Origin: an uncultured Pseudomonadales bacterium
Lineage (GTDB): Bacteria; Patescibacteriota; Microgenomatia; UBA1400; UBA1396
DNA: 41,712 nucleotides
Direction: 5' to 3'
NCBI GenBank assembly: GCA_964447905.1
Contig: CAYUUK010000009.1
Coordinates: 1 to 41,712, forward strand
Made by a program: the position numbers and the translations under genes. Each line of letters starts with the position of its first letter. The stretch's first letter is position 1. The notes below the pieces were generated by a model. That model saw only the letters and a list, made by a program, of their open reading frames with translations. It ran no database searches and was not told the DNA's origin. Positions 27,216 through 41,712 of the stretch are shown one piece after another.

Positions 27216-27246
27216 TGTTGCAAATACCCAAAAGAAGCTAAAATTC

Positions 27247-27275
27247 TTGACAGTCTCCATTTTTAGCAATATAAT
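27247..27275 (+). promoter_or_regulatory. Consensus sigma70 promoter driving T-box 1
   Basis: TTGACA-N17-TATAAT, perfect match. Confidence 0.88.
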
Positions 27276-27282
27276 TTCGAAC

Positions 27283-27526
27283 AATCCGCAATAACGAGTG
27301 TCGCGCCTCGTGATCTTGCAAGCACACAAAGCAAGAGCGGAATCTCGCAAAATCGAGATCGGCTGGCATCCGTAACTTCCAGACTTGTGTCACTCGTTTA
27401 GAGAAACGGAGCAAGTTACAAAGTGTGTATTGGCAACAATACACTAAATAAGGGTGGTACCGCGTTTTTAAATTTTAGAAGACGCCCCTTTGTCTACAAA
27501 ATACTTGTAGGTGAAGGGGCGTTTTT
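27283..27526 (+). ncRNA. T-box riboswitch 1 (transcriptional; probable Arg CGC specifier)
   Basis: AAGGGTGGTACCGCG at 27450-27464; CGCCCCT antiterminator partner; terminator 27481-27526; hairpin ACGAG-TGTCGCGC-CTCGT. Confidence 0.9.
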
Positions 27527-27554
27527 GCGTTTCATGACCTACGGAAAGGGAAAG

Positions 27555-28418
27555 ATGCCACAAACACATGAGCATCATCAATACACAGAAATAATGCCAA
27601 ATAAAAACATTCGTTTTGGCCTCTGGAAAGATATAGATCCTGGTATTCTCTACGAAACACTGGAACATCCAAACTGGGCTCCGTGGCTAGAAGCTGACAT
27701 TGCTTCCATTCATGGCAGGGCACAGTTTTTTCCCAAAGGGCAATTGCTGCTCCTAGACGGTACAAAACCCATTGCCAACCTCTCTACAAATCAGATTATG
27801 TGGAATGGTAATCCAAATTCATTACCAACTTGGGATGATATTGCTGGAAATCCAAGTGACTACAGTCAAACCTATACACCTACTGGAAATACGTTGGTTT
27901 TAATGTCTATGAATGTCGCTCCTGAATACCATGGTCAACAGCTCCCTGCAAAACTCGTCGGGCAAGTGCAACAGATGGCGTTTCAACTTGGTATCCAACA
28001 TATAGTGGGATCATTTCGACCCAATACATATGGAGCTCTGAAACAACAATACCAACAAGACATTCCTTTTTGGCACTACGCTACAAAAATGAAAACACCC
28101 AGAATAGATACCAATGGTGCTTTTGGTAAACCAGGAAAAACAGTTCACATGCCTGTAGATAGTTGGCTGAGAAGCTTAACATGGTTAGGAATGCAACCTA
28201 TAAAAGAAGATACAACCGCCATGACGGTTACCGTTCCAGTAGCGGAATTTGAGTACTATCAACAAACCTATCATCCTGAATCTTGGTGGCAGGCACCAAA
28301 CGGGAAATGGCACTGTAGTGAAGTTGGTAGTTGGACAATTAACCGAGAGCAACAAACAGCCACATACCAGGAATCCAACCTGTACGGATCATTGCCACTT
28401 TTACAAGGAGCACGATGA
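27555..28418 (+). CDS. GNAT-family acyltransferase (YkwB-like)
   Basis: FPKGQL...TWDDI...GNTLVLMSMNVAPEYHGQQL; start ATG 27555 after the T-box terminator with GGAAAGGG SD. Confidence 0.7.
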   Translation: MPQTHEHHQYTEIMPNKNIRFGLWKDIDPGILYETLEHPNWAPWLEADIASIHGRAQFFPKGQLLLLDGTKPIANLSTNQIMWNGNPNSLPTWDDIAGNPSDYSQTYTPTGNTLVLMSMNVAPEYHGQQLPAKLVGQVQQMAFQLGIQHIVGSFRPNTYGALKQQYQQDIPFWHYATKMKTPRIDTNGAFGKPGKTVHMPVDSWLRSLTWLGMQPIKEDTTAMTVTVPVAEFEYYQQTYHPESWWQAPNGKWHCSEVGSWTINREQQTATYQESNLYGSLPLLQGAR

Positions 28419-29218
28419 ACGCCCAATCTGAATGGTTCTCTCTTCAACAAGTCACTCCACATATTTTTGCTGTTGCAGAACCACATCACTGGGAAGAAGT
28501 GATTTCATATGTTTTTGTAACACCAGATCAACTTTTTCTATTTGATACTGGCATGGGATATGAGTCTCTCTCTCAATTCCTGCAGGAACAATTCTATTCA
28601 AGACCGGTTACTGTCTTACTCAGCCATGCCCACTGGGATCATATTGGCAGTGTGCATGAATTTACAGATATTTGGATTCATGCACACACCTGGGAAACAG
28701 AGAGACTCGCTCGAGGATTTCACTCTTTAGAAGTTGAAGAACTCTCGTCACCCTACTTTTCTGCTCCATTTGTAACAAAAGAGTTTATCGCTCCAGGGTC
28801 ATCTCAGTTTCAAACTTTCCAAGACGGGTATACTTTTGAGACATCATGTGGTGTTATTGCTGTCATTCACACACCTGGGCATACACCCGGATCAGTCTGT
28901 TTTTGGTTACCAGAAGAAAATGTACTTATTACTGGCGACACTCTCTATCCAGCTGCGGAGTTTTTGTATTTGCCGGAGTCAAATGTTGTTGCCTACACAA
29001 AGAGCATAAAAAAACTCCTGCACCAGTTTCGGGACAGTACCATTACGATTCTTCCGGGGCATAATGCCATTCAAACCAATATACAGTTGCTACAAGATCA
29101 CCATGACGCGCTTCTTGGCAAGACCAAAGCACACAAAAGAGAATTAAAAGAAGACCATTATGGGAAATTCGAAGAATGTTTCTTCCAGGGATTTTCACTC
29201 CGACTACCGCAGTGTTAG
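28415..29218 (+). CDS. MBL-fold metallohydrolase
   Basis: FDTG, SHAHWDHIG, HTPGHTPGS, ITGD and LPGH; ATGA coupling with the GNAT. Confidence 0.92.
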   Translation: MNAQSEWFSLQQVTPHIFAVAEPHHWEEVISYVFVTPDQLFLFDTGMGYESLSQFLQEQFYSRPVTVLLSHAHWDHIGSVHEFTDIWIHAHTWETERLARGFHSLEVEELSSPYFSAPFVTKEFIAPGSSQFQTFQDGYTFETSCGVIAVIHTPGHTPGSVCFWLPEENVLITGDTLYPAAEFLYLPESNVVAYTKSIKKLLHQFRDSTITILPGHNAIQTNIQLLQDHHDALLGKTKAHKRELKEDHYGKFEECFFQGFSLRLPQC

Positions 29219-29694
29219 ACTGTTTGCACCTGAATACTCACATCCTGCAAAACTCGGAACATATCTATCGGAGATAAACGAATTGTTCTATTATGCACTC
29301 CAGCGTTAATGAACACCTGTTTTTGTTCTAGCAGTTGCTGGTCAAAAATCACGGGATACTGCCGTTCATACCCCAATGGGGCCAAGGCGCCAATCTCAAT
29401 ACTCAACTCTGCTAGCACTTCTTCCGGTTGCACGAGTTTCCACTTTTTATATGAGAGTTGCTTTGTGATGACATTGAGCGGAATCATCTCATCACCCTGC
29501 CACACCACCAACCAATACTCGAACTGACGTTTTGTTTGGTACAACTTTATGAGCAAGGTTTTGACACCCTGTTCTGGAGAATGCTCACAAACTTCAGCAG
29601 CTTGTTGCATGGTAAAGACAGGCTCATGTTCTAATACTTCATGAGAAATGCTCTTCTCTTTAAGAAGATTTTGCACGTTTTTAAAAATACTCAT
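29215..29694 (-). CDS. YbaK/ProX (aminoacyl-tRNA editing) domain protein
   Basis: HEPVFT...VKTLL...IGALAPLG...FINAGVHNRTI. Confidence 0.88.
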   Translation of the reverse strand: MSIFKNVQNLLKEKSISHEVLEHEPVFTMQQAAEVCEHSPEQGVKTLLIKLYQTKRQFEYWLVVWQGDEMIPLNVITKQLSYKKWKLVQPEEVLAELSIEIGALAPLGYERQYPVIFDQQLLEQKQVFINAGVHNRTIRLSPIDMFRVLQDVSIQVQTV

Positions 29695-30428: not shown

Positions 30429-30659
30429 GTGGTACGTTCCATAAATAGAGAAATTCCTAGTCCAAATCAATGCCGTTTCTTAAAAGAAGGCTCTAGATGT
30501 CATTCGCGTGGGGCTCTTGCACCTACAAATGCGGAAATGGTAGTAAATGATGATTATGAAATACTGCTCTACTGCGTCGCAAGTTTATCTACCTTGGCAC
30601 AACAATCATGTAGTAATTATGATCAAGCTAGCCCCGACTCTGAAAAAACTAGCGATTAG
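30429..30659 (+). CDS. Small Cys-rich hypothetical protein
   Basis: Four Cys conserved with the frameshifted paralog at 21892 (CRFL...SRC...AEM...LYC...AQ..CS.Y). Confidence 0.7.
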   Translation: MVRSINREIPSPNQCRFLKEGSRCHSRGALAPTNAEMVVNDDYEILLYCVASLSTLAQQSCSNYDQASPDSEKTSD

Positions 30660-31392
30660 GTACCTGCCCAATTCCAATCATGTGCCGAGCAAATTCCGCA
30701 GGCACCTGCTGTCGAAGGGTTGACTCATTCATTAAAAATTCTACAAATTGATCAATTGTCTGATCAACATCATAGTTCATTGCTTGAAGAAAACGAGTAT
30801 AGGTATTCAGGAAGTAATTAATTCCAAATACCTCGACGTTTTCTAGTTCTCCACTAAACAATTCCTTTAGCTGCTCTTCTGTATAGAAAACTTTATCAAT
30901 TCCTTTTTCGGTTGCTGTGCTGTAACCACCCATTTCGAGACCATGACCCACACGAAGTGTGTAAGGCATAAGAGCAACAAAACCACCCGGTTTAACGACT
31001 CTTACAATCTCTCTCAATAACTCTTCAGGGAAAAGTGAGTAAGACATTGGTCCATAAAGGCTCACGGCTGAATCAAAACTTTCATCTGCAAATGGGAGGT
31101 GATGCATATCTGCCACAATGAAAGGTTGCTCGGGATGTTTCACTTTTGCTTGATGGGTCATTTTGGGTGATAATTCAATACCAACATAATCCTCATGATC
31201 CATGATTTCATAAAGCAATCCGCTACCGGCCCCTACATCTAAAACCCGTCCTTTCAGATATCTGCTCAGGATGTCTGCTACTACAGCATCCTCTGCGCGG
31301 CAAGTAATCGAAGAATAACCATTATCATAGTCATCTGTCTCTGTATCGTAAAATTGGGCAATTTGTTGAAGGCGTTCGGTTTCTGAGCTCAT
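30649..31392 (-). CDS. Class I SAM-dependent methyltransferase
   Basis: VLDVGAGSG, GIELSPKM, ADMHHLPFADESFD and EIVRVVKPGG. Confidence 0.9.
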   Translation of the reverse strand: MSSETERLQQIAQFYDTETDDYDNGYSSITCRAEDAVVADILSRYLKGRVLDVGAGSGLLYEIMDHEDYVGIELSPKMTHQAKVKHPEQPFIVADMHHLPFADESFDSAVSLYGPMSYSLFPEELLREIVRVVKPGGFVALMPYTLRVGHGLEMGGYSTATEKGIDKVFYTEEQLKELFSGELENVEVFGINYFLNTYTRFLQAMNYDVDQTIDQFVEFLMNESTLRQQVPAEFARHMIGIGQVPNR

Positions 31393-31466
31393 GATATCTT
31401 TCTATGTCTAAATTGATAGAAATATATCACATGTAGTGGATATTTCAAGTATATCCACTTTATTGA

Positions 31467-31994
31467 TTACAAAATATGTACAACTGATGCAGTGGATTCT
31501 ATTCCTGAGCGTAAAGCATCAGGCTTCATTTTGATTGTTTTATTGTGAACACCCGGATTAATATATACCTCATTTTGATTCAGAAGGTCGCTATCAAGGA
31601 CAACTGGGTAGGATCCTGAGTAGCCAAAAGGTGAAAGTGCTCCAATCTCTACTCCGAGTTGCTCATTTACTTCCTCTGGGTTAGCCAATTTAACTCTTTT
31701 CACACCAAGATGTTGAGCAATTTGCTCAAAATCAACCTGTTTGTTTCCTGTCCACACTATCAAAACATGGCTATAGGCTTTTTTCGATGTATATGCACGA
31801 GCAAATAGAACTTTGACACCTTCTTCTGGTAAGTTCCCGCACACTTCTTGAGCTTCTTGCATTGTGTAGACGGGTTCATGCTCCATGACAGAATGCGCGA
31901 TGCTTTGGGCGATTAAACTATCAATTACAGTCTGAAAAACAGATTTACTCATATTTTCATCTCGTGGAGTATCATTTTCATGCTCAGTAGACAT
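31467..31994 (-). CDS. YbaK/ProX (aminoacyl-tRNA editing) domain protein
   Basis: HEPVYT...VKVLF...IGALSPFG...YINPGVHNKTI; starts 2 nt after the argS stop. Confidence 0.88.
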   Translation of the reverse strand: MSTEHENDTPRDENMSKSVFQTVIDSLIAQSIAHSVMEHEPVYTMQEAQEVCGNLPEEGVKVLFARAYTSKKAYSHVLIVWTGNKQVDFEQIAQHLGVKRVKLANPEEVNEQLGVEIGALSPFGYSGSYPVVLDSDLLNQNEVYINPGVHNKTIKMKPDALRSGIESTASVVHIL

Positions 31995-31996
31995 TA

Positions 31997-33871
31997 TTAC
32001 ATCCTCATAGGAGCTTCAATCCCGAGAAGTTCAAGTCCTGTTTGAATAGTTTGTGCTACAGTTACTGTAATAGCTAAACGACTCATTCGCTTGTCGTAAT
32101 CTTCTTCTCTTAAAACAGATACTTGATGATAAAAGGCATTGAATGCTTTTGCTAGCTCGTAAATATGAGAAGCGATTTTTGAAGGATTGTATGATTGGCC
32201 AGCATCTTTAACCACCTCTGGAAATTCTGCAACACGCTGAATGACTGCCTTCTCTGTTGCATGTTCAGGGTTAACTTGAACTGAGCTTAGTGCACGGACG
32301 TCAATCCCTTCAAGCAAAGATGCCGCTCGAGCATGAGTATATTGAACATACGGAGCACTATTTCCTTCCATGGTGAGCATCGAATCCCAGTCGAACACAA
32401 TTGATCGACGAGGGTCAGCCATTAAGTCATTCCATTTCAAAGCACCCACCGCTACTTGTCTTACTAATTCTTCTTTTTCGCGTTCAGAAGTCACGTGGGA
32501 TCTTTCACTGACTAATTCTCGTGTGCGGGCAAATGCTTCATTTACTACATCTTCCAAAAGAATAACCCGCCCTTTACGTGTGGACATCTTACCCTCTGGA
32601 AGACTAATCATTCCAAAATAGACATGTTTGCTTTTTTCAGCTAATGGGTATCCCATTCTTCGTAATATTTCAAAGAATTGTTCAAAATAAAATTTTTGAT
32701 CTTCGCCAACAACATAGATCATGCCGTCTGTGCTCTCAACATCGCTTCTGTGAATACCTGTAGCTATTTCTCGGGTTAGGTAGAGTGTTGCACCATCTGA
32801 TTTTTGGATAATAGCTGTCCCTAAATTATCATCTTCCATGTCTACTACGAGAGCTCCATCACTCTCAGTAGCAATGCCACTTTCCCTTACTTTTTGAATT
32901 GCTTCCGGTAGCATTCCTTCATAATAGCTTTCACCTCTTGTCCAATCAAAATCTACACCAAGAACGTCATACATACGTTGGAACTCTTGCAGAGACCAAT
33001 CAACAATTTGTTGCCAACGAGCTCTGGCCTCAGGATCACCCTGTTCTAGGCGTCTAAACCATTCTCGACCCTCATTTTTTATCTGTTCAGCTTTTTGAGC
33101 AGCTTCTTCATCCTTTAAACCCTTATAGAGATCACTATCTGCCTCACCAGCATCACTAATGCGAACATATAATTTTTGCAACTCTGCTATAGGGTCTTGT
33201 GCTATTTGTTCCTCATCACCCCAAAGTTCAATTGCTCGTAGAAGATGCCCAAATTGAGTTCCCCAGTCTCCTAGGTGGTTATCTTTTATGACCTCAAAAT
33301 CTAAATGTTCAAAAATTCTTGCTAACGAGTCTCCAATGATGGTGGAACGGAGATGTCCAACACTCATACGTTTCGCAATATTGGGAGATGACATGTCAAT
33401 GACAATTCTTTGACCAGTCCCAATCAGCTCTTTTCCATAGTCAGCACCCATTTCAAAGACACTGTCACGAACCATTTCAGCATAACGTGCATAATTGATT
33501 CTTGCGTTTATGTATGGACCAACTGCAACATACTCAGCGATTACTCCATTGGGTTCAACCTGAATTTGCGTTGCAATTTCTTGAGCAATTTGTGCTGGGT
33601 TCTTTTTTAAGATTTTTGCCAAAGGAGCACAATGAATACCAAAATCACCATCCACATTATCAGGAGATTCTTTTACCATCATTTGTTCGAGGATTTCATC
33701 TTCGAGACCAATTGAACGCAATGCTTCCTTGAATTCGTTATTTATTTGACTGATTGGATAGGTTGTTTTTGTCATAGCAATTAAAAATTCAATCGGCAAG
33801 CCTGGATTAAGTTCTCCTCTTGATTCCTGTTCTTCATGACTTGAATATCGTTCTTTTCTTCGACGTGGCAT
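31997..33871 (-). CDS. argS: Arginine--tRNA ligase
   Basis: GPYIN, SSPNIAKRMSVGHLRS, NHLGDWGTQFG, KMSTRKG, PYVQYTHAR and a C-terminal DALR domain ending APMRM. Confidence 0.97.
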   Translation of the reverse strand: MPRRRKERYSSHEEQESRGELNPGLPIEFLIAMTKTTYPISQINNEFKEALRSIGLEDEILEQMMVKESPDNVDGDFGIHCAPLAKILKKNPAQIAQEIATQIQVEPNGVIAEYVAVGPYINARINYARYAEMVRDSVFEMGADYGKELIGTGQRIVIDMSSPNIAKRMSVGHLRSTIIGDSLARIFEHLDFEVIKDNHLGDWGTQFGHLLRAIELWGDEEQIAQDPIAELQKLYVRISDAGEADSDLYKGLKDEEAAQKAEQIKNEGREWFRRLEQGDPEARARWQQIVDWSLQEFQRMYDVLGVDFDWTRGESYYEGMLPEAIQKVRESGIATESDGALVVDMEDDNLGTAIIQKSDGATLYLTREIATGIHRSDVESTDGMIYVVGEDQKFYFEQFFEILRRMGYPLAEKSKHVYFGMISLPEGKMSTRKGRVILLEDVVNEAFARTRELVSERSHVTSEREKEELVRQVAVGALKWNDLMADPRRSIVFDWDSMLTMEGNSAPYVQYTHARAASLLEGIDVRALSSVQVNPEHATEKAVIQRVAEFPEVVKDAGQSYNPSKIASHIYELAKAFNAFYHQVSVLREEDYDKRMSRLAITVTVAQTIQTGLELLGIEAPMRM

Positions 33872-33889
33872 ATGAAATCCTCCTAAGGT

Positions 33890-35134
33890 TTAGCGCATTT
33901 CTGATGTTGCACAATGGGCACCACCATAAAACTTTGTTAATTCATTCATTCTCAAGAGGACAGCGTTCACAGCGTGCTCACGAATAAACCGCGTAACATT
34001 CGGTGTCCCGTCTCTAGTAACAAAAACCGTAGTATCTCCAGTCTGGCTACCATGTACTAGCACATTTGGAGCGTAATCTAACTGTTCTTGTCTGGTCATA
34101 TCATACACGTGATCCGCGTTTTGCTCAATCCATTCGGCAAAAGTCCCTTCACGCATATTTTCAGGTTTCACTTTCACAATTCGCCCCATTTTTCTCATAA
34201 GGATAGATACATCACGATGGCGTGTTATTTCACCACAATGAACAATTGCTCCAGGAGCAATTTGTTGAGCAAAAGTGTCGATATGCATCTGATCTTGTGT
34301 CCCAGATTTAGGTCCTTCCACTACTACAGGAATAATCCCATCTCCACTGGCACTGAATAGTTTCTCGTGCATTGCGAACCACGCTTTTACTGCACTATAT
34401 GAAGTACGCTCTGCAGTTCCAATAACTGAAAAAAGCTGTCCGTTCAGTTCCATTGGTAAAATGTCACCACCTTCTATTGATCCACGATTCAACCCAGTAA
34501 CAACTGGTTTATATTCGAGACCAAGTGCATCAAAGCCGATTTGCGCAAGCGCCACTTCTTGGTCACGAATTGAGTAGAACATCCTATGTGTTCCCATTTG
34601 ATTTCCAGTTACGTGATTTGTGTCTCTCCAAAAAAGAAAATTACCAGCTGGAGGAAGATTTGGATTGAATGGTTTAATACTTCCTTTTCGATCAAGCACG
34701 TTTGTGAGAACACCATTAATTGCTATTGCCGGATCAAGTCCCATTGATTGCACATCTTTATCAAAAAGTTGAACAACTTCATCCACTAAGTGATCGAAGT
34801 CATCAACGAGTCCGTATCTTTGTTGAAGTAACTCTGCTCGACGAATAAGCTCGTTTAAAAATTGTTCTCTCGATGTAATAGCCAAATCGTAGCGCTGTGC
34901 CAATTCAGTACCAATAATCTCTCTCATGTTAAAGGACTGAATACCATGCTGTTCGAAGGTTTCTCTCATTCGGTCATGATCTCGTCGTGCTTCAACAACA
35001 CTCGCATCAGCAGAATTAGGTTCAAATAAGGATTTTTCGGGAGGAAGTGTTAAACAAACTGCTGCTTCTGTACCTGGAGGACCCGAAAGAACTGATTTAA
35101 TTGGGTCTAAAGGTGAGTAATTCTCGGCTCGCAT
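33890..35134 (-). CDS. Arginine deiminase-like (amidinotransferase superfamily) protein
   Basis: NFLFWRD, SIEGGD, MHIDT and GGAHCAT catalytic Asp/Glu/His/Cys motifs. Confidence 0.82.
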   Translation of the reverse strand: MRAENYSPLDPIKSVLSGPPGTEAAVCLTLPPEKSLFEPNSADASVVEARRDHDRMRETFEQHGIQSFNMREIIGTELAQRYDLAITSREQFLNELIRRAELLQQRYGLVDDFDHLVDEVVQLFDKDVQSMGLDPAIAINGVLTNVLDRKGSIKPFNPNLPPAGNFLFWRDTNHVTGNQMGTHRMFYSIRDQEVALAQIGFDALGLEYKPVVTGLNRGSIEGGDILPMELNGQLFSVIGTAERTSYSAVKAWFAMHEKLFSASGDGIIPVVVEGPKSGTQDQMHIDTFAQQIAPGAIVHCGEITRHRDVSILMRKMGRIVKVKPENMREGTFAEWIEQNADHVYDMTRQEQLDYAPNVLVHGSQTGDTTVFVTRDGTPNVTRFIREHAVNAVLLRMNELTKFYGGAHCATSEMR

Positions 35135-35261
35135 GTTTGTTTCCTATCTAGGCAAGCAGTTAATATTTCTCCGAAAATACCACAAAATACATCAATTGTA
35201 AACATCTATTGATGTTAGAAACGCAAAGCTAATTAATTAGATAGATATCAATCGTATATAA

Positions 35262-36536
35262 CTATATACTCTCCCTAAAATGATTTTTTACTTTCGAAGA
35301 CGTCTTCATCGCTAATGAATACAACTCAATAAATCCAGCACTCGAGTTTTGATTAAACTTGCCATTTTTGTTGAATGTGGCTAAGTCAGCATCGAATAGT
35401 GAATGTGGTGAAGTGACGCTAACAACATCAGCTCGACCTTTATACAATTTGAGTTTTACGATCCCACTCACTTTTTGATTCATAGAATCAATATAAGCAT
35501 TCAGATGTCGCATGCTTGGCTCTTGCCATTTCGCACTGTAGCAAAGGTATGCCCATTTTGAATCAACAAACTCCTTAAGCTCGTTTTCGGTCTGAGTGCT
35601 GACGAGTTTTTCCAAATTGTAGTGTGCCAGAGTAATTGCATGTGCCGCTGGGGCTTCGTAGACTCCTCTAACTTTCAAACCAACCAAACGGTCCTCAATC
35701 AAGATGGTGTAACCAACTCCATGTTTGCCAACAATACTATTCGCTTCGTGAATCAGTTCAACTAGAGACATCTGCTTGCCATTCAAAGCAACAGGCAAAC
35801 CTTTCAAAAACTCAATCTCCAAGTATTCTGGCTTGTCTGGAGCTTGTTCTGGCAAAGTAGTAACTTGTAGAATTTGTTCTAGCTTGGGTTCTTGTTTAGG
35901 ATCTTCAATCTCTCCACCTTCTCCAGTCACCCCCCACATATTGTCATCCCAGGAGTAGGGAACATTTTTTTTGGCTTGCTTGGTTTCGATACCATGCTTG
36001 GCGGCGTACTTGAGCTGTTCATCTCTGCCCATGCTCCATTCACGCACTGGTGCAATCGCTTTCATGTAAGGATCTTCACAAAGAATTGAGCTTTCAATAC
36101 GTACTTGATCATTGCCCTTGCCAGTAGCTCCATGGGCGATAACCGTTGCTCCCTCTGCATGAGCGATTTCTACCGCTTTTTTAGCGAGCAGTGGACGTCC
36201 AATCGGAGTGCTCAGATGGTACTCACCCTGGTAACTCCCATTCGCCTTGATTGCTTGAGCGATATACTTATTGGCAAACTCTTCTTTGCAATCTAGGACA
36301 ATTGCCTTCTTTGCTCCAAGCTTGATCGCTTTTTGCTTAATTGCTTCGAGATCATCAGCTTGTTGACCAATATCTATCGTTAAAGCGATAACTTCAGCTC
36401 CGTAAGAATCCTGAATCCACTTGAGCATGACCGAAGTATCAAGTCCGCCTGAGTAGAGTAGAACTACTTTGTTTATTTGATCGCCTTCGTGAACTTCATG
36501 AGAGGCTATCTTTTTGTAATTTGTTTGTGTTTGCAT
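35262..36536 (-). CDS. argG: Argininosuccinate synthase
   Basis: LLYSGGLDTS, HGATGKGNDQVR and EDRLVGLKVRGVYEAP; start ATG 36536 with AAGGA SD. Confidence 0.96.
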   Translation of the reverse strand: MQTQTNYKKIASHEVHEGDQINKVVLLYSGGLDTSVMLKWIQDSYGAEVIALTIDIGQQADDLEAIKQKAIKLGAKKAIVLDCKEEFANKYIAQAIKANGSYQGEYHLSTPIGRPLLAKKAVEIAHAEGATVIAHGATGKGNDQVRIESSILCEDPYMKAIAPVREWSMGRDEQLKYAAKHGIETKQAKKNVPYSWDDNMWGVTGEGGEIEDPKQEPKLEQILQVTTLPEQAPDKPEYLEIEFLKGLPVALNGKQMSLVELIHEANSIVGKHGVGYTILIEDRLVGLKVRGVYEAPAAHAITLAHYNLEKLVSTQTENELKEFVDSKWAYLCYSAKWQEPSMRHLNAYIDSMNQKVSGIVKLKLYKGRADVVSVTSPHSLFDADLATFNKNGKFNQNSSAGFIELYSLAMKTSSKVKNHFRESI

Positions 36537-36543
36537 GTTTTCC

Positions 36544-37908
36544 TTATTTGAGTAAATCTTGTAATTTTTGTTGAAAGTGTTTGTTTTGTTTTTTCCAGTA
36601 TGTACGCTCAAGGCGAGACCTTTTTTGTGTAATTCCTAGTTGTAAGTTGCCAGTGGATCCCTGTGAGATTGCTTTCATTAACAACTCTGCTATGTCGAAA
36701 TCTGGAATCTCATGTAGATGATCCTTAACGTATCGATACGCTTCTCGAAACGGCATGTCTTTTTCTTCTACTAACACATATGCCCAATGAGCAGCAAAAA
36801 GTTCTTTAGGAATATGGTGTTCTACTTTTTCTTGATTGATTGTGAGCGTCTCTACATGCAGTTGGGCTACTTGAAGTGATTCAAGCGTTGTTTGAAAAGC
36901 TGAGATAAGACTTCCCTTGGCTTGTTGCAAATCTCTGTTATATCCAGAGGGGATGCTCGCCAAACTGGTGCTTAATTGAAGTTGAGTGGAGACTATTTGA
37001 TGATACTTTGATCGCATTAACTCTAAAGCGTCCCAGTTTTGTTTCTGAGGCATGATACTACTGCCCGTACCAAGTTCTTTGGCAAAAGAAATGTAGCCAA
37101 ATGGTTCAGTTGTAAAAATAAGACAGTCAGTCGCAAATTTATTAAGCGTTGCCATGATCTGGCACAGTGCATGGATAGTTACCGCTTCAATTTTCCCTCG
37201 TGAGTTTTGACAATACAGGGCATTGTTTTGAACTTTCTCAAAGCCAAGTAAATGAGCTGTGAATTCTCGGTCAAGTGGTAGAGTTACACCATACGCCGCT
37301 CCAGAACCAAGCGGCGACTGATTATTGAGTTGATAGGCAGTTTTTAATACTTCTAGATCGTCGAGCAAGCTTTCTGCATAGGCTCCAAGCCACAACCCAA
37401 ATGATGACAACATAGCAGGTTGCATGTGGGTCATGCCAGCTAGGGGAACATTTTGGTAGTTTTCAGCTTGTTTGAGAAAACTTTCAATAAGTGCAATAGA
37501 GCTCTCAGCAATTTTTGAAATTTGTGTTTTTGAGTAGAGTCGAATATCAACAAGTACTTGATCATTTCTTGATCGTCCGGTGTGCAGTTTTCCACCCGAT
37601 TCTGGATGCAAATTCGTGAGTTCGGTTTCAACCTTGGTGTGAATATCTTCATCACCCAGTGAGAGATTCATTTCTCCACTGGAAAACTGTTTTAAGATTG
37701 CTTTCAATCCAGCATGTATCTGTTTAAAGTCTTTCTCTTCAATCAGGTTCTGCTTCTGAAGCATCTTGGCATGTGCCAGAGATCCGTAGATATCAAACTC
37801 GGCTAGATGGGTATCCAACAAAACGTCCTCTCCAGAAGTGTACTTTTCTATCAAAGCGTTAATTGTATGAGTGGTTTGCCACAGTTTTTTTGTCATAGTT
37901 TTTTTCAT
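36544..37908 (-). CDS. argH: Argininosuccinate lyase (start may be 37896)
   Basis: EDIH, LHTGRSRNDQ, THMQPA, SPLGSGA, GSSIMPQK and SGYNRDLQ. Confidence 0.95.
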   Translation of the reverse strand: MKKTMTKKLWQTTHTINALIEKYTSGEDVLLDTHLAEFDIYGSLAHAKMLQKQNLIEEKDFKQIHAGLKAILKQFSSGEMNLSLGDEDIHTKVETELTNLHPESGGKLHTGRSRNDQVLVDIRLYSKTQISKIAESSIALIESFLKQAENYQNVPLAGMTHMQPAMLSSFGLWLGAYAESLLDDLEVLKTAYQLNNQSPLGSGAAYGVTLPLDREFTAHLLGFEKVQNNALYCQNSRGKIEAVTIHALCQIMATLNKFATDCLIFTTEPFGYISFAKELGTGSSIMPQKQNWDALELMRSKYHQIVSTQLQLSTSLASIPSGYNRDLQQAKGSLISAFQTTLESLQVAQLHVETLTINQEKVEHHIPKELFAAHWAYVLVEEKDMPFREAYRYVKDHLHEIPDFDIAELLMKAISQGSTGNLQLGITQKRSRLERTYWKKQNKHFQQKLQDLLK

Positions 37909-37920
37909 TTATTTTTTCTT

Positions 37921-37997
37921 TGGTGAGCCCGGCAGGATTCGAACCTGCGACCTTCAGTTCCGCAAACTGACGCTCTATCCAACTGAGCTACGAGCGC
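37921..37997 (-). tRNA. tRNA-Arg(GCG)
   Basis: TCAGT-TT-GCG-GA-ACTGA anticodon arm; A73 and CCA encoded; C2-U71 mismatch. Confidence 0.93.
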
Positions 37998-37998
37998 A

Positions 37999-38076
37999 TG
38001 GTGCCCTAGGAGGGATTCGAACCCCCGCAAAACCCGGTTCCGAAGACCGGTGCTCTATCCACTGAGCTACTAAGGC
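37999..38076 (-). tRNA. tRNA-Arg(UCG)
   Basis: CCGGT-CT-TCG-GA-ACCGG; GCCTTAG/CTAGGGC acceptor stem; ACCA end. Confidence 0.93.
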
Positions 38077-38085
38077 ATTCTCACG

Positions 38086-38158
38086 TGCGTTTGGTGGGAC
38101 TCGAACCCACAACCTACTGCTTAGAAGGCAGTTGCTCTATCCCTTGAGCTACAAACGC
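38086..38158 (-). tRNA. tRNA-Arg(UCU), CCA not encoded
   Basis: ACTGC-CT-TCT-AA-GCAGT; GCGTTTG/CAAACGC acceptor stem; A73. Confidence 0.95.
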
Positions 38159-38390
38159 AAAAACGCCCCTTCACCTACCTCTTATCAGTAGACAAAGGGG
38201 CGTTTTCTGTAAACGCGGTACCACCCTTATTCTCTAAGTAATTACTCACTTAGACTTTACACCTGCTCTGTTACTCGATTTGAGTGACACAGATTTGAGT
38301 TATAACGGACTCGAATCGATCTCGATTTTGCGAGACTCCGCACTAGATTATATCTAGATTCATTGAGCGCGACTTCAATTCAAACGGATT
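38159..38390 (-). ncRNA. T-box riboswitch 2 (transcriptional; probable Arg CGC specifier)
   Basis: AAGGGTGGTACCGCG at 38228-38214; terminator AAACGCCCCTTTGTCTAC...GTAGGTGAAGGGGCGTTTTT; CCGTTA box; hairpin ATTGA-AGTCGCGC-TCAAT. Confidence 0.9.
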
Positions 38391-38413
38391 TATTTGTTTT
38401 TAACAACAAAGAA

Positions 38414-38441
38414 ATTATAACAAACATCTTATTGCGTTCAA
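38414..38441 (-). promoter_or_regulatory. Promoter for T-box 2
   Basis: TTGAAC-N16-TATAAT with extended -10 TG. Confidence 0.7.
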
Positions 38442-39520
38442 GATTTAAATTGAGATTTAGAAATTAACATATCTAAAATAATCATCTGTAATTTTTGTAG
38501 ATCATCAACTGATATTCGTTCATTAGTTGTATGAGGATCAATAACCCCGTCACTCACTGTTACAACTTCTAATCCTAGTTCAGCAAATGAGTTTGCGTCA
38601 CTTATTCCAAACACTTTTTTCTTTTTTAGAGGTAAATTATACTTATTAAGAATTTTTTCTATAAAATGAACCTGTTGTGAGTTATCTTTATGTGTATATC
38701 CACTACAATAACCACTAGTGCTAAATTTGAATATCGCATTTCCAAATTGTTTTTGGGTTTGATTTAGTCTTAACTCCAGCTTTTCAAGCATGTTCTTGAA
38801 TTTTGTTGCCGAAAAACTACGAATTTCTCCTTCTACAACAACCTTCTCAGGAATAGCATTTATTGCTGATCCTCCGCATATTTTTCCAATATTGAGAAAA
38901 ACATCTTTCTCGTCATTTGCACCCAGTCTCAAAGTCTCAATGTACTTGGTGGCGAATCGTAAAGCATTCACACCTTTTTCGGGAAAACAAGCATGTGCCC
39001 CTCTCCCGATAAATTCTATGTAAAAATTCACTATAAATGGGGCTGAAGTCACGATAGTTCCTAGTGGTTCAGCATAATCAAAAATATAGCCTTGCTTATT
39101 TTCAATAAGTTTGGTGTCAAAAAATTCAGCACCACCACCGGTTTCTTCTTTCACTGTAAATACGAGTTCAATTCCATTAATTGGCTTTATCAACATCCAT
39201 TCATCAACTGCTGTAAGAATCGCAGCCATGGATGCTTTGTTATCTGCTCCTAAAATAGTATTGCCTTGGCTTTGAATTACTCCATCTTGAATAATTGGAT
39301 GAATAGACCTTCCTGGTTCGACAGTGTCCATATGGGCACATAAAAAGAAGGGGATGAGAGTATCTCCCTCTTTTTTTAAAACAAGATTACCGACACTATC
39401 AGTGAAGTGAGACAGATTTCTTGATTTTCCCCATTGAATAAGCCATTTTCTAACATTTTCCTCACTACCTGATGGACTATCGATTTTTACTAACTCAAAA
39501 AATGTATCAATTAATGTCAT
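38438..39520 (-). CDS. M20B peptidase T-like metallohydrolase
   Basis: IDSPSGSE, AHMDTVEPG, LGADNKA, KEETG, AHA..PEKGVNA and HTTNE. Confidence 0.9.
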   Translation of the reverse strand: MTLIDTFFELVKIDSPSGSEENVRKWLIQWGKSRNLSHFTDSVGNLVLKKEGDTLIPFFLCAHMDTVEPGRSIHPIIQDGVIQSQGNTILGADNKASMAAILTAVDEWMLIKPINGIELVFTVKEETGGGAEFFDTKLIENKQGYIFDYAEPLGTIVTSAPFIVNFYIEFIGRGAHACFPEKGVNALRFATKYIETLRLGANDEKDVFLNIGKICGGSAINAIPEKVVVEGEIRSFSATKFKNMLEKLELRLNQTQKQFGNAIFKFSTSGYCSGYTHKDNSQQVHFIEKILNKYNLPLKKKKVFGISDANSFAELGLEVVTVSDGVIDPHTTNERISVDDLQKLQMIILDMLISKSQFKS

Positions 39521-39522
39521 GA

Positions 39523-40056
39523 TTACTTAACTTTAACAGGTTTCAGATCGTAAATGGTATCAACACAACTTTTTCCTTCAGGAAGATCTTCCTTGTGCTT
39601 ACATCCACAGGTCTGACACATCACAAAAGCATCAGGATGCATCTGACGTTGATCGATTTCTGTTGCACCGTATTTTTCAAATATTGGGGCTGAATTATCG
39701 TTACCAAATGCAACTAATCTTTTACCATTAGTTCGAGATAAAATTGCTTGCAGTAACCCTTTTCCAACACCTTTAGCTTGAGTATTAGGTGACACAGCCC
39801 ATCCACCAAATTCTAATGTTCCATCTGGGTACTCAAATGTTACTGCAGCTGTTCCAATAAGTGCTTCCTTCTCATCCACGGCTAATGCCAACATGCCTTG
39901 AGATGCAATCTTAGCTAGCTGATCTGCTGTAACAGCAAGCATTATGCCTTGTTCTGCAAAGTAGTTAATTAAAGTCGCGGCAAGGTTTAGCAAAGCCTCA
40001 TCATTTTCTGAAGGAAAAACGATCTCATACGATCTTGACTCATGGGGACTAATCAT
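39523..40056 (-). CDS. GNAT acetyltransferase resembling short ArgA (N-acetylglutamate synthase-like)
   Basis: LI..FAEQGIML, AVSPNTQAKGVGK, FEKYG and a C-terminal Cys cluster (CQTCGC...C) as in short ArgA-type GNATs. Confidence 0.65.
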   Translation of the reverse strand: MISPHESRSYEIVFPSENDEALLNLAATLINYFAEQGIMLAVTADQLAKIASQGMLALAVDEKEALIGTAAVTFEYPDGTLEFGGWAVSPNTQAKGVGKGLLQAILSRTNGKRLVAFGNDNSAPIFEKYGATEIDQRQMHPDAFVMCQTCGCKHKEDLPEGKSCVDTIYDLKPVKVK

Positions 40057-40745
40057 AGTACTACTCCTTTTTCTAACAATGCATCTCTACGATCTACAAC
40101 TGATTTCAATGCAACTTCGGGGTTATAGAGTAATGCTGATAATTGTTTTAATGATCTAGGATTAAGGGAGCTCATCCGTGTCAATAAATAAGATGGCAAT
40201 GCCTCGCCTTGCATCGCTTTTCGAACAACACTAATTTGGGTGGGAAAAGTTATACCTTCTACAAAGCTTAGGCCATTATCGGTAGCGACTACCTGTCCAT
40301 TAGGGAGAAACAAAATGTCATTTGATGTTCGATCGATGAGTCCAGCTAAGTAATCCAAAGCAGCTAATTCTACCCATGCTGGACTTGGTTCCAAAGACTC
40401 AAAGAAATAATGGGGCTTTACCTCCGCACTATCATAAAAAGGACTTAAAGATCCACAATCATCATCTTTGAGACTGTAGGAAATTGCAGGGATTGCAGAA
40501 CTAACCCCGATCATTTGTGCTAATTGAAAAAATGCAACGTGATGGTGCACTTCATATGGTTTTGGAATTCTCTGATCTGTTTGAAATCGAACTCCTTTTT
40601 CTGGGTAGTACAAAGCTTTCGATTTCCGTCCTTGCTGAGTTACTTCAACCAATAAGCTAATATTCTTTGTGTGGCCTCTTACCTCAATTGGTTTCACTTC
40701 TTCAAATTGCTCAGAAAACTGACGTTGTTCTTTACCTCTACGCAT
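40053..40745 (-). CDS. PI3/PI4-kinase-like (HipA-like fold) protein
   Basis: LDYLAGLIDRTSNDIL...ATDNGLSF resembles D..I.N.DR...N...IDxG.SF; start ATG 40745 with AAAGGT SD and TATAAT upstream. Confidence 0.6.
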   Translation of the reverse strand: MRRGKEQRQFSEQFEEVKPIEVRGHTKNISLLVEVTQQGRKSKALYYPEKGVRFQTDQRIPKPYEVHHHVAFFQLAQMIGVSSAIPAISYSLKDDDCGSLSPFYDSAEVKPHYFFESLEPSPAWVELAALDYLAGLIDRTSNDILFLPNGQVVATDNGLSFVEGITFPTQISVVRKAMQGEALPSYLLTRMSSLNPRSLKQLSALLYNPEVALKSVVDRRDALLEKGVVL

Positions 40746-40826
40746 AATTACCTTTTCGTGTAAATTATGGGTATTATAGCTCAAAATGGGTGGTTGTCAT
40801 GAGGAAACAGTGCAATTATCAATTCA

Positions 40827-41712
40827 CTATTCTCGAATCAGATCTAATGAGAAGCCATGCTCACGAGCAGAAGAAAATAACTTGAATCCTGCCGCATGCT
40901 GTTTATCAGTCAATTTTTTGTGTTTGGAGACATAAATACCTAGAGAAAAAGCAAATCTATTTTGGTATGAAGAAAACTTCCCAGATTTCTTTCCCCAGTG
41001 AGCTAGGCTAAACCAAAAGTTCTCATTTAGAGCAATTTGTTTATATTCATTCTTCAATTCTTCATCGCTAACAAAGATAGTATTGATATTTTCAACAATC
41101 TCACTTTGTACCGGCTGTTCGTTGAGACCAACCTCAGCTGAAGGTTCTTTTGACATTTCAACTTCATCTTCATCTAGATCAAAGGCTGGTTGGTAATCTA
41201 TTTTAGATGGTACATTTTCAGAAAGAATTTTTTTCGAAAACTTACTATTCCCATCTAAATCAGCATCGTACTCTTTTAGTACCTTCCTTAGTGCATCCAA
41301 CTCCTCGTCATACTCTTTTTCATCAAACCAGTTTCCAGACCAAATTCGATATACTTCATATCCGTTATCCCGTAGTTGCTGCATTCTAAAGTAATCGTAA
41401 GCATATGCTTCAGATGTGCCATGGTATGAGGCACCATCACACTCGATTACCAATGGTTTCCTAGTATCGTCTATTGGGTCAATGAGAAAATCGACTCGAA
41501 AAGAACCAATCCAAACTTGAGATCTTATTCGACTATTATCAGGAACAATACGAGTTAATTCGTCATATACTTCTTCTTCAAACGGAGATTCTGTTTCAAT
41601 AAAATGCGGTACGGAAATCGCTTCTTCAGTTGAACCTTGCTTTACCACCCCCCAAAACATGCTCTATCTGTTTTTGATTCCCTTCACTCACAGCCTTTGC
41701 GTAGGCAAGGTA
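40827..41712 (-). CDS. C-terminal part of a large SF1 helicase fused to a Vsr-like PD-(D/E)xK nuclease; frameshift at G6 run
   Basis: ESPFEEEV...GSFRVDF...IECDGASYH...D..R...L...G..VYRIWS; the upstream frame YLAYAKAVSEG... joins if 41648-41653 has 5 rather than 6 bases. Confidence 0.75.

Follow-up and report, generated by a model that had tools for sequence, protein, structure and literature searches.

What kind of circuit results when an RNA element that reads uncharged tRNA stands directly in front of tRNA genes? T-boxes are a textbook case of one RNA reading another, and the question is raised here by an arginine cassette on the minus strand of contig CAYUUK010000009.1, deposited as an uncultured Pseudomonadales bacterium and placed by GTDB in the Patescibacteriota. 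The whole 41,712-nt stretch (hereafter the window) is contig C9 of a 37-contig genome of 1.06 Mb that is 95.6% complete. In the cassette, a promoter and a T-box leader are followed by three tRNA-Arg genes, argH, argG and genes for an arginine-deiminase-like protein, an arginyl-tRNA synthetase (ArgRS), a YbaK-family protein and a methyltransferase. All of these features had been listed, on one strand, in an original prediction from the sequence alone, and all are present. The reading that we favour and consider probable is that the leader is a functional, transcription-attenuating T-box specific for tRNA-Arg(GCG), that it presents a CGC specifier on an ultrashort Stem I, and that it gates supplementary tRNA-Arg genes together with the operon behind them. 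An independent metagenome contig (L058) has the same gene order, the methyltransferase gene included, and the same junctions, with 94–98% amino-acid identity; the arrangement is therefore not an assembly artefact of this genome.

Is the leader a T-box? A scan of the whole window at Rfam's gathering threshold gave no T-box match. With looser filters, RF00230 matches the leader at 44.8 bits (gathering score 93; E = 1.8e-8 for 901 bases searched), so the Rfam search that the original prediction had proposed does point to a T-box, though only below the gathering score. Related leaders score 34.9–52.3 bits. The alignment is of high confidence in the 3′ half, which holds the T-box sequence and the antiterminator. 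The T-box sequence itself, AAGGGUGGUACCGCG, lies on the 5′ side of the antiterminator, is of the conserved AGGGUGGNACCGCG type, and aligns with the top posterior probability (an asterisk in the output) at model positions of about 186–200; it is invariant over ten leaders, except that ACC becomes AUC in 2 of the 10. The UGGU of the antiterminator bulge (38223–38220) is complementary to the ACCA 3′ end of tRNA-Arg, a predicted pairing that takes in A73 as well as CCA. Antiterminator and terminator are mutually exclusive, the 3′ strand of the former doubling as the 5′ arm of the latter, and the last U of the terminator (38159) directly abuts G1 (38158) of tRNA-Arg(UCU), with no spacer at all. The minimum-free-energy (MFE) fold of the whole leader has z = −4.8, and the terminator helix (helix 9) is 94.5% paired in the ten-sequence alignment.

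The 5′ domain had to be derived differently. Rfam's own Stem I alignment had low posterior probabilities and fell on the promoter; we discarded it as spurious and re-derived the domain by comparing homologous leaders. Nine further leaders were found by DNA searches of relatives and metagenomes, and the resulting ten (the window's two, one each from genomes G001, G003, G004, G006, G029 and G164, and those of L058 and L062) were scored on their RNAalifold consensus. Over the whole alignment 96.1% of cells are paired and 28 pairs show compensatory changes; none of 500 column shuffles reached any of the five measures, and sliding the partners by 1–3 columns lowered pairing to 43–51%. Covariation is strong in five helices. 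It is uninformative for the antiterminator, whose pairs are invariant. The structure that emerges comprises a basal helix (UCCGY/RCGGA), a short Stem I, Stem II, Stem IIA with an F-box-like CCGUUA, Stem III and the antiterminator/terminator. In Stem I every one of the 5 pairs shows compensatory changes, with 100% of cells paired. Eight distinct stems can be told apart by eye, AUUGA/UCAAU, ACGAG/CUCGU and GUCGG/CCGGC among them, and the GUCGCG core of the loop is invariant in all ten leaders. The leader is without K-turn, specifier internal loop, AG bulge or distal loop, and so without the features of a long Stem I. The earlier description of a "complete T-box" thus holds for the 3′ half; Stem I is ultrashort and has no distal platform. 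Judged from its sequence, the leader is a genuine arginine T-box of non-canonical build, transcription-attenuating by anatomy.

These features place the leader between two known types. With canonical transcriptional T-boxes (RF00230), of which the Bacillus tyrS and glyQS leaders are examples, it shares the T-box sequence, a 7-nt UGGN bulge facing the NCCA end of tRNA, a terminator exclusive with the antiterminator, a specifier matched to the pathway, the F-box-like CCGUUA and Stems II, IIA and III. Unlike them, it carries its specifier in the terminal loop of a 5-bp Stem I, and the nearest genes under its predicted control encode tRNAs and not a protein. Actinobacterial ileS-type translational T-boxes, reportedly described by Sherwood et al. 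in 2015, are said to have an "ultrashort" Stem I. Those leaders likewise have a truncated Stem I without the distal tRNA-elbow platform and keep the Stem II and IIA/B region, but they sequester a ribosome-binding site and act on translation, whereas here there is a strong intrinsic terminator. In the passages of PMC7583486 that draw this contrast, the ultrashort Stem I is given as a usual trait of translational T-boxes, for which the platform is dispensable, and in transcriptional ones the platform counts as essential. By that account a short Stem I joined to a strong terminator is unusual.

Which tRNA would such a leader read? The best-supported specifier, from loop comparison, is CGC at 38371–38369, followed by the purine G, and tRNA-Arg(GCG) with A73 would be the matching ligand. 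No other codon suits both subtypes of leader together with their arginine contexts. All ten leaders precede argH, ArgRS, tRNA-Arg or genes that recur behind arginine leaders. A second leader subtype (L048, L052 and L054; UBA924-type), which precedes tRNA-Arg(GCG), has a loop of the UUCGCAA type. In the same genome, the leader of the prolyl-tRNA synthetase (ProRS) gene forms a hairpin of matching geometry whose loop, UUCCUAC, has CCU at positions 3–5, followed by a purine. Finally, the UGGU bulge matches A73, which is found in all three cassette tRNAs and in all seven tRNA-Arg genes of the genome. The original prediction had paired tRNA-Arg(GCG) with a CGC specifier and A73 with the UGGU bulge, and both pairings are borne out by the loop comparison and by A73 in all seven genes. 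The feedback loop that it proposed, in which the riboswitch controls synthesis of its own ligand, also appears to be structurally present, with a GCG tRNA copy downstream of the leader. tRNA-Arg(GCG) is encoded twice in the genome (in the cassette and on contig C14). CGC is the commonest arginine codon, at 35% of arginine codons (CGC and CGU together, 58%), as counted in a crude set of ATG-initiated open reading frames of at least 250 amino acids.

ARAGORN and Rfam agree on the three tRNA genes of the cassette, UCU, UCG and GCG, all on the minus strand (Table 1). By standard wobble rules these three anticodons can read all six arginine codons. The genome has four further tRNA-Arg genes (UCG and UCU on contig C13, GCG on C14 and CCU on C1) and, on C13, another ArgRS that is 36–38% identical to that of the cassette. 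The original prediction had called for a look for such copies elsewhere, and their presence means that its description of the cassette as a self-contained module was overstated. The cassette GCG gene is 99% identical to its counterpart at C14:13528–13605; the single base that differs creates a C2–U71 mismatch in the cassette copy. Upstream, the −35 element of the cassette promoter overlaps the TGA stop codon (38440–38438) of an M20 peptidase gene. The promoter is kept in L058 with one change in the spacer, and equivalent TTGACA/TATAAT promoters lie upstream of paralogous leaders. Two gene starts may need revision on comparative grounds: argH is likely to begin at its second ATG (37896), since a 1-nt deletion in L058 throws the first ATG out of frame, and argG probably begins downstream of the listed TTG, since the family match starts near residue 45.

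Table 1. Positions of the features of the arginine cassette and of the second arginine T-box, in window coordinates
Feature	Position (strand)	Details	Basis
Sigma-70-like promoter	38414..38441 (-)	-35 TTGAAC 38441-38436; 16-nt spacer with TG extension; -10 TATAAT 38419-38414	Consensus scan
Arginine T-box leader	38159..38392 (-)	From invariant AAUCCG to terminator U-tract	RF00230 and 10-sequence alignment
Short Stem I hairpin	38362..38379 (-)	5 bp, AUUGA/UCAAU; 8-nt terminal loop AGUCGCGC	
T-box sequence	38214..38228 (-)	AAGGGUGGUACCGCG	RF00230 alignment
Antiterminator	38195..38228 (-)	A1 AAGGG/CCCUU; 7-nt bulge UGGUACC; A2 GCG/CGC	Sequence and RF00230 alignment
Intrinsic terminator	38159..38206 (-)	Hairpin of ~21 bp and U5 (38163-38159)	MFE fold
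tRNA-Arg(UCU)	38085..38158 (-)	82% identical to housekeeping gene on contig C13	ARAGORN; Rfam 75.3 bits
tRNA-Arg(UCG)	37999..38076 (-)	Enlarged variable region; 85% identical to housekeeping gene	ARAGORN; Rfam 63.7 bits
tRNA-Arg(GCG)	37921..37997 (-)	Cognate of proposed CGC specifier; mismatch flagged	ARAGORN; Rfam 65.8 bits
argH (argininosuccinate lyase)	36544..37908 (-)		TIGR00838 319 bits (cut-off 279.5)
argG (argininosuccinate synthase)	35262..36611 (-)		NF001770 507 bits (cut-off 334)
Arginine-deiminase-family hydrolase, divergent	33890..35134 (-)		PF02274 66.3 bits (Pfam cut-off 22.8)
Second ArgRS (cassette-type)	31997..33871 (-)		TIGR00456 486.3 bits (cut-off 261.65)
YbaK/ProX-family (tRNA_edit) free-standing putative deacylase	31467..31994 (-)		PF04073 104 bits
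Class I S-adenosylmethionine-dependent methyltransferase	30649..31392 (-)		PF08241 and related families
Second arginine T-box, same subtype	27281..27526 (+)	Stem I ACGAG/CUCGU; loop UGUCGCGC	RF00230 34.9 bits

Are the leader and the tRNAs behind it maintained? As a neutral yardstick we took the four-fold degenerate sites of seven neighbouring genes, which differ between the window and L058 by 9–44%, giving a yardstick of about 20%. By comparison, the leader differs by 3.4%, tRNA(UCU) by 1.4% (one difference in 74 nt), tRNA(GCG) by 3.9% and tRNA(UCG) by 9.0%. The low divergence relative to four-fold sites indicates that the leader and the UCU and GCG tRNAs are constrained, and that UCG is being lost in one lineage. 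For argG, 44% of four-fold sites differ from L058, yet the proteins are 95% identical. Among the arginine codons of the cassette genes, AGA and CGA make up 54%, compared with 27% genome-wide, and the two diverged cassette tRNAs read just these codons; the bias could reflect a benefit from the cassette tRNAs or simply the lower G+C of the region. Across window positions 30600–41712, G+C is 36–46% (~48% in most larger contigs of the genome) and arginine codon usage is strongly shifted to AGA and CGA.

The arrangement also recurs elsewhere. We scanned one genome per species (185,579 species) for an exact pattern consisting of a T-box core, 45–75 nt and a tRNA 5′ end. By a rough estimate about 20 matches to this pattern would be expected by chance; 23 were found, of which nine are T-boxes, all nine confirmed by Rfam. 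Five of the confirmed matches are on Patescibacteria-type contigs (37.5–41.6 bits). Spacing of zero nucleotides between U-tract and tRNA is found in the window, G029, L048 and L052, in three Patescibacteria operon contexts. In the G029/L036 context a T-box is followed by tRNA-Arg(UCU), an unknown protein, an aminotransferase and ArgRS; in the L048/L052 context it is followed by tRNA-Arg(GCG), a 287-amino-acid protein (unk287) and a metallo-beta-lactamase-fold protein. G029 has other UCU, UCG and GCG tRNA-Arg genes besides the gated one. The T-box–tRNA(UCU) junctions of the window and G029 form a contiguous 76% match, which is expected anyway where two conserved elements abut and does not imply common ancestry. 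Within the order, junction-spanning DNA matches occur in at least 3 of 286 genomes among the matches listed (this tally and that of the cassette-type ArgRS take in genome G167, which carries no specific claim here). None of 27 ordinary tRNA-Arg(UCU) genes in the order has a T-box motif within 110 nt upstream.

In four species of Paenibacillus, canonical phenylalanine T-boxes (109–111 bits) precede tRNA-Phe(GAA) genes at a spacing of 35–45 nt: one tRNA-Phe gene in P. filicis (L043), three in a Paenibacillus sp. metagenome-assembled genome (MAG; L047), three in P. pseudetheri (L050) and six in P. nitricinens (L051). No obvious protein gene belongs to these units, and P. nitricinens has two further tRNA-Phe-like copies elsewhere, 92% identical. 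As in the window, the specifier (UUC in L051) fits the tRNAs immediately downstream and the gated genes are extra isodecoders. The Paenibacillus units differ in having a long Stem I, scores above the Rfam threshold, the 35–45-nt spacer and one to six identical or nearly identical tRNAs. In every case examined, then, the gated tRNAs are cognate and supplementary, and the T-box–tRNA arrangement, though rare, turns up repeatedly and not in this genome alone. The comparison with other genomes that the original prediction had called for thus returned two patterns: a T-box followed by a cognate tRNA recurs, and so does a T-box–argH–(argG)–deiminase–ArgRS operon, the latter in two other lineages and without tRNAs.

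The scan yielded several observations of its own. The 14 matches that we did not count were judged by eye only to be something other than T-boxes, having no terminator hairpin or U-tract; eight of these 14 precede tRNA-Arg. A near-palindromic 12-mer, GGTGGNACCGCG, lies 50–75 nt upstream of tRNA-Arg in L035, L038, L040, L042, L044, L045, L049 and L057, without a terminator, in Verrucomicrobia, Acidobacteria, Planctomycetes, Actinobacteria and one unclassified bacterium. It may be chance together with the tRNA-Arg-like D-arm in the pattern, or an operator. L054 (580–884, minus strand) and L055 (1677–1981, plus strand) carry a Patescibacteria-type arginine T-box, and of the tRNA-Arg behind it only the 5′ half is left. 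Both are binned as Gammaproteobacteria/Pseudomonadales MAGs, and L036, with its G029-type T-box–tRNA–ArgRS unit, as a Thermoplasmatales archaeon; these three contigs are probably mis-binned.

How would the cassette work? What the sequences themselves show is the anatomy of the leader, its covariation and conservation, and the recurrence of the arrangement; we infer tRNA-dependent readthrough, RNase P processing, co-transcription past argG and a physiological benefit. In the circuit that we propose, uncharged tRNA-Arg(GCG) would accumulate and pair with the leader at two points, through its anticodon at CGC and through its ACCA end at the UGGU bulge. With the antiterminator thereby stabilised, RNA polymerase would read through the terminator. 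The first products would be three supplementary tRNA-Arg, released by RNase P and 3′ processing; argH and argG would come next, for salvage of citrulline to arginine, and readthrough would probably continue into the divergent arginine deiminase, the second ArgRS and the YbaK-family deacylase. With a copy of the ligand tRNA among the products, the signal would be subject to positive feedback, which the co-induced ArgRS and the arginine supply would shut off. The gated tRNAs would serve as extra copies beside constitutively expressed housekeeping genes. Such a transcript may not extend as one unit from T-box to methyltransferase, since promoter-like sites lie in both the 127-nt gap between argG and the deiminase gene and the 74-nt gap between the YbaK-family and methyltransferase genes. 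The latter site is at 31448–31421, and the methyltransferase gene may be a separate transcription unit.

Several points weigh against this reading. At the level of the leader, the match reaches about half of Rfam's gathering score (44.8 vs 93 bits), and the comparative structure has a 5-bp hairpin inside a short basal helix where the distal platform of Stem I would be, a platform that PMC7583486, in the passages cited above, holds to be essential in transcriptional T-boxes. At the level of the tRNAs, the UCG gene of L058 has a D-arm deletion, the anticodon UAG and a G-to-U change in the T-loop; the GCG copy in the window carries the C2–U71 mismatch; and L054 and L055 keep only the half tRNA behind their T-boxes. 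The decaying UCG, the GCG mismatch and the half tRNA indicate that selection for gated tRNAs is not uniform. At the level of the operon, the 127-nt gap holds a weak AU hairpin as well as its promoter-like site, so the distal genes may be separately expressed here, and argH has lost the Shine-Dalgarno-like tail carried by the paralogous leaders. There are also physiological objections: extra tRNA-Arg during arginine starvation brings no obvious direct benefit, and an arginine deiminase co-induced with argG and argH would make a futile cycle.

Some of these objections would be met if the tRNA array were a neutral, recent insertion of duplicates behind the T-box, now decaying, with the T-box and argHG working as usual. 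We hold this to be unlikely, although it accounts for a good deal. G006 has a T-box–argH–argG operon without tRNAs (88% amino-acid identity to the cassette for argH, 95% for argG), L062 has T-box–argH–argG–deiminase–ArgRS–YbaK without tRNAs, and G164 has T-box–argH–deiminase–ArgRS without tRNAs and with gaps of about 100 and 15 nt. Since these homologous operons have no tRNAs, the array is lineage-specific, and on this comparison of gene orders the cassette is a mosaic in which a recent insertion specific to the window/L058 lineage sits on an older T-box–argH–(argG)–deiminase–ArgRS operon. A neutral origin would also fit the complete housekeeping set of tRNA-Arg genes, the 9% divergence and structural damage of tRNA(UCG) in L058, the different acceptor-stem changes of the two GCG copies and the truncated tRNA remnant in L054 and L055. 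It does not fit the divergence of the other two tRNAs, only 1.4% for UCU and 3.9% for GCG beside 9–44% at four-fold sites, nor the recurrence of the junction, which has arisen with zero spacer in three Patescibacteria operon contexts and with a 35–45-nt spacer in Paenibacillus, always with a cognate tRNA.

The protein genes behind the array raise a further question, namely what an arginine deiminase (ADI) is doing next to an ArgRS. From its catalytic residues and the comparison of its structural model, the deiminase-like gene is a divergent arginine deiminase with the catalytic residues conserved. In 29 sequences of the family, D171, R190, E221, D224, R243, H284, D286 and C408 are invariant, so that the catalytic Cys-His-Asp/Glu set and the arginine-binding Asp/Arg residues of ADIs are all present, and the motifs align with FxRDT, EGGD, MHLDT and GG-HC of Pseudomonas aeruginosa ADI (1rxx). 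The protein falls below the arcA equivalogs (TIGR01078, 50.4 bits with a cut-off of 489.1; NF002381, 58.5 bits with a cut-off of 414). Its AlphaFold2 model has a pLDDT of 94.1, and the top ten Foldseek matches are all ADIs (TM-score 0.65–0.70); dimethylarginine dimethylaminohydrolase (DDAH) matches at about 0.5 (query-normalised). On fold ranking and motifs we prefer ADI to a DDAH or amidinotransferase identity, both of which rank behind it. Like ArcA (1RXX from P. aeruginosa; 1LXY and 4E4J from Mycoplasma), the protein has the ADI fold with its helical insertion, equivalents of D166, H278, D280 and C406, and the EGGD and FxRDT motifs. Unlike ArcA, to which it is 16–20% identical, its gene is linked to ArgRS and has no ornithine transcarbamylase (OTC) or carbamate kinase partner in the genome. 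Both enzymes were looked for in the 95.6%-complete genome and neither was found; the genome thus has neither the ATP-yielding deiminase pathway nor a route for making citrulline de novo, which leaves imported citrulline as all that argG and argH can salvage. A divergent ADI paired with ArgRS, with the rest of the deiminase pathway missing, poses a question about how arginine is handled in ultra-small episymbionts. In L062 (6372–9413), the deiminase-like and ArgRS genes match in several reading frames, which indicates frameshifts, whether from sequencing errors or pseudogenisation.

The cassette ArgRS has its N-terminal, catalytic and DALR domains (PF03485, PF00750 and PF05746) and scores above the ArgRS equivalog cut-off. 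Its distribution is patchy: a close homolog is found in 9 of the 286 genomes of the order, and among 40 relatives none is more than 41% identical to it, so that vertical inheritance within the order is unsupported. For both types of ArgRS, the closest relatives that carry a name come from MAGs of Woesebacteria, Pacebacteria, Daviesbacteria or Levybacteria; these names make a Patescibacterium of the Microgenomates type the most likely organism. A first look at G102 and G217 gave no ArgRS candidate other than the cassette-type enzyme, which may be the sole ArgRS there. The YbaK-family protein, which the original prediction had cast as an arginine proofreader, does not bear that role out. It matches tRNA_edit (PF04073) and falls below the YbaK equivalog (TIGR00011, 56.9 bits with a cut-off of 153.25), it has a 46%-identical paralog at 29215–29694, and the ProRS of this genome is without an editing domain, which is an ordinary reason for free-standing YbaK-family proteins.

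The deiminase, the second ArgRS and the YbaK-family protein could nonetheless form an arginine-fidelity or antimetabolite module, directed for example against canavanine-like analogues, with the extra tRNAs serving that module and not starvation. The first of these proteins would degrade the analogue and the second would reject it as a substrate, leaving the third to deacylate any mischarged tRNA-Arg. Gene linkage lends this idea its appeal: the deiminase-like gene adjoins a cassette-type ArgRS in L058, L059, L062, L064 and G164, equal lengths of the longest contig suggest that the two share a contig in at least ten database entries, YbaK1 follows the ArgRS in L058 and L062, and the deiminase-like family, with 50 database proteins, has every named match in the Patescibacteria. 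We consider the idea improbable, because the deiminase keeps every arginine-binding and catalytic residue of true ADIs, which fits plain arginine as substrate; because the cassette-type ArgRS may be the sole, ordinary synthetase of G102 and G217; and because a T-box senses uncharged tRNA, not mischarging. To our knowledge, moreover, the only canavanyl-tRNA deacylase described belongs to another protein family.

A separate possibility is that the T-box does not gate the tRNAs at all, which would be transcribed from a promoter of their own or by constitutive leak. Intrinsic terminators are never fully efficient, and the U-tract here is just 5 nt long and partly paired with an upstream A-run. An independent tRNA promoter downstream of the terminator was named in the original prediction as grounds for abandoning the idea of a gated array. 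A consensus scan found no promoter-like site on the minus strand between 38414 and 38158, the 3′ half of the leader included, and the zero spacing between U-tract and tRNA leaves no room for one. By contrast, ordinary tRNA-Arg(UCU) genes in the order mostly have clear −10 boxes (about 21 of 27 with a TATAAT-like box when the 70 nt upstream were read by eye). Own transcription or leak as the main source of these tRNAs therefore seems quite improbable. Least of all do we believe that the leader is a degenerate relic that kept a conserved 3′ motif, as its sub-threshold Rfam score and the lack of K-turn, AG bulge and distal loop might suggest, in view of the strong covariation in five helices, the 3.4% divergence set against a neutral yardstick of about 20%, the invariant specifier loop common to ten paralogous and orthologous copies, and the T-box-like leaders before ProRS and another class II synthetase in the same genome.

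If the leader does act as a T-box that gates tRNA genes, how much of this is new? The T-box logic and T-box-controlled duplicate synthetases are already known. In Bacillus cereus one of three argS genes is T-box regulated, according to the portion of PMC2494555 that deals with it; there as here, an extra synthetase lies behind a cognate T-box with a housekeeping copy beside it. The cassette differs in that the synthetase is distal, behind tRNAs, argH, argG and the deiminase, and belongs to another ArgRS lineage (36–38% identical). The survey figures given in that portion of PMC2494555 divide T-box targets into synthetases (62%), biosynthesis (18%), transport (12%) and other protein genes (8%), with no tRNA genes among the classes named there. 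Neither T-box-gated tRNA genes nor T-boxes in Patescibacteria are described in the literature that we searched; supplements and subscription papers lay outside that search, so a prior description is possible, and T-box-gated tRNAs could stand in the TBDB tables or in the gene lists of Wels et al. The statement in the original prediction that no such cassette was known thus agrees with the literature searched, with the qualification that the arrangement is recurrent, if rare.

We offer more tentatively, and would not ourselves expect it to hold in full, a broader proposal: that T-boxes gating extra cognate tRNAs are a distinct, recurrent and undescribed target class that acts as a positive-feedback amplifier, and that an ultrashort Stem I, with no elbow platform of the kind held necessary for capturing tRNA co-transcriptionally, is enough for a T-box that terminates transcription. 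Under an amplifier, the first uncharged tRNAs would trigger a burst of new, initially uncharged ligand tRNA, and this burst would switch on every T-box of that specificity in the cell; the recurrence would then comprise arginine in at least three Patescibacteria operon contexts and phenylalanine in Paenibacillus. The usual picture of the circuit is a simple negative loop, to which a T-box with its own ligand as first product would add feedback; the gated tRNAs would be a case from nature of bacterial tRNA isodecoders that are expressed only under certain conditions. Should an ultrashort Stem I prove to work with a terminator, the kinetic argument for an elbow-binding platform in transcriptional T-boxes would need revision. 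Leaders of about 230 nt would also make compact gene-control parts where genetic tools are scarce.

The cassette is not the only place where this genome appears to use such leaders. The second arginine T-box belongs to a plus-strand unit at window positions 27237–29218 with its own TTGACA/TATAAT promoter, and precedes a 287-amino-acid protein without a Pfam family (27555–28418) and a metallo-beta-lactamase-fold protein (28415–29218). The same gene pair follows T-box and tRNA-Arg(GCG) in L048 and L052 (45–48% and 41–42% identity), which marks the pair as a conserved but so far uncharacterised part of the arginine T-box regulon. Directly after the terminator of this second T-box stands GCGUUU (27527–27532), which is also how tRNA-Arg(UCU) begins (38153–38158), and the corresponding tails in G001 and G006 resemble them; the shared hexamer could be microhomology at an insertion point or a coincidence. 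Of the leaders before synthetase genes, the one at C1:44817–44955 (minus strand; Stem I loop UUCCUAC) precedes an archaeal-type ProRS without editing domain, and that at C7:30951–31156 (plus strand), which is very short, precedes a class II synthetase of the G/H/P/S/T group. The latter has a UGGA bulge, which would presumably fit U73 of bacterial tRNA-Gly.

Two further observations concern the upstream side of the cassette. At window positions 40827–41660 (minus strand), a 277-amino-acid protein weakly resembles a C-terminal part of ProA and Hhe, two anti-phage proteins, with scores of 49 and 39 bits that fall far short of the cut-offs. Nearer the cassette promoter, and immediately upstream of it (window positions 38438–40056), are homologs of a GNAT acetyltransferase and an M20 (PepT/ArgE-like) peptidase, here without a T-box of their own; in G003 (L033, 514–742) and G004 (L032, 1953–2184) an arginine T-box stands before a GNAT acetyltransferase gene, followed in G004 by an M20 peptidase.

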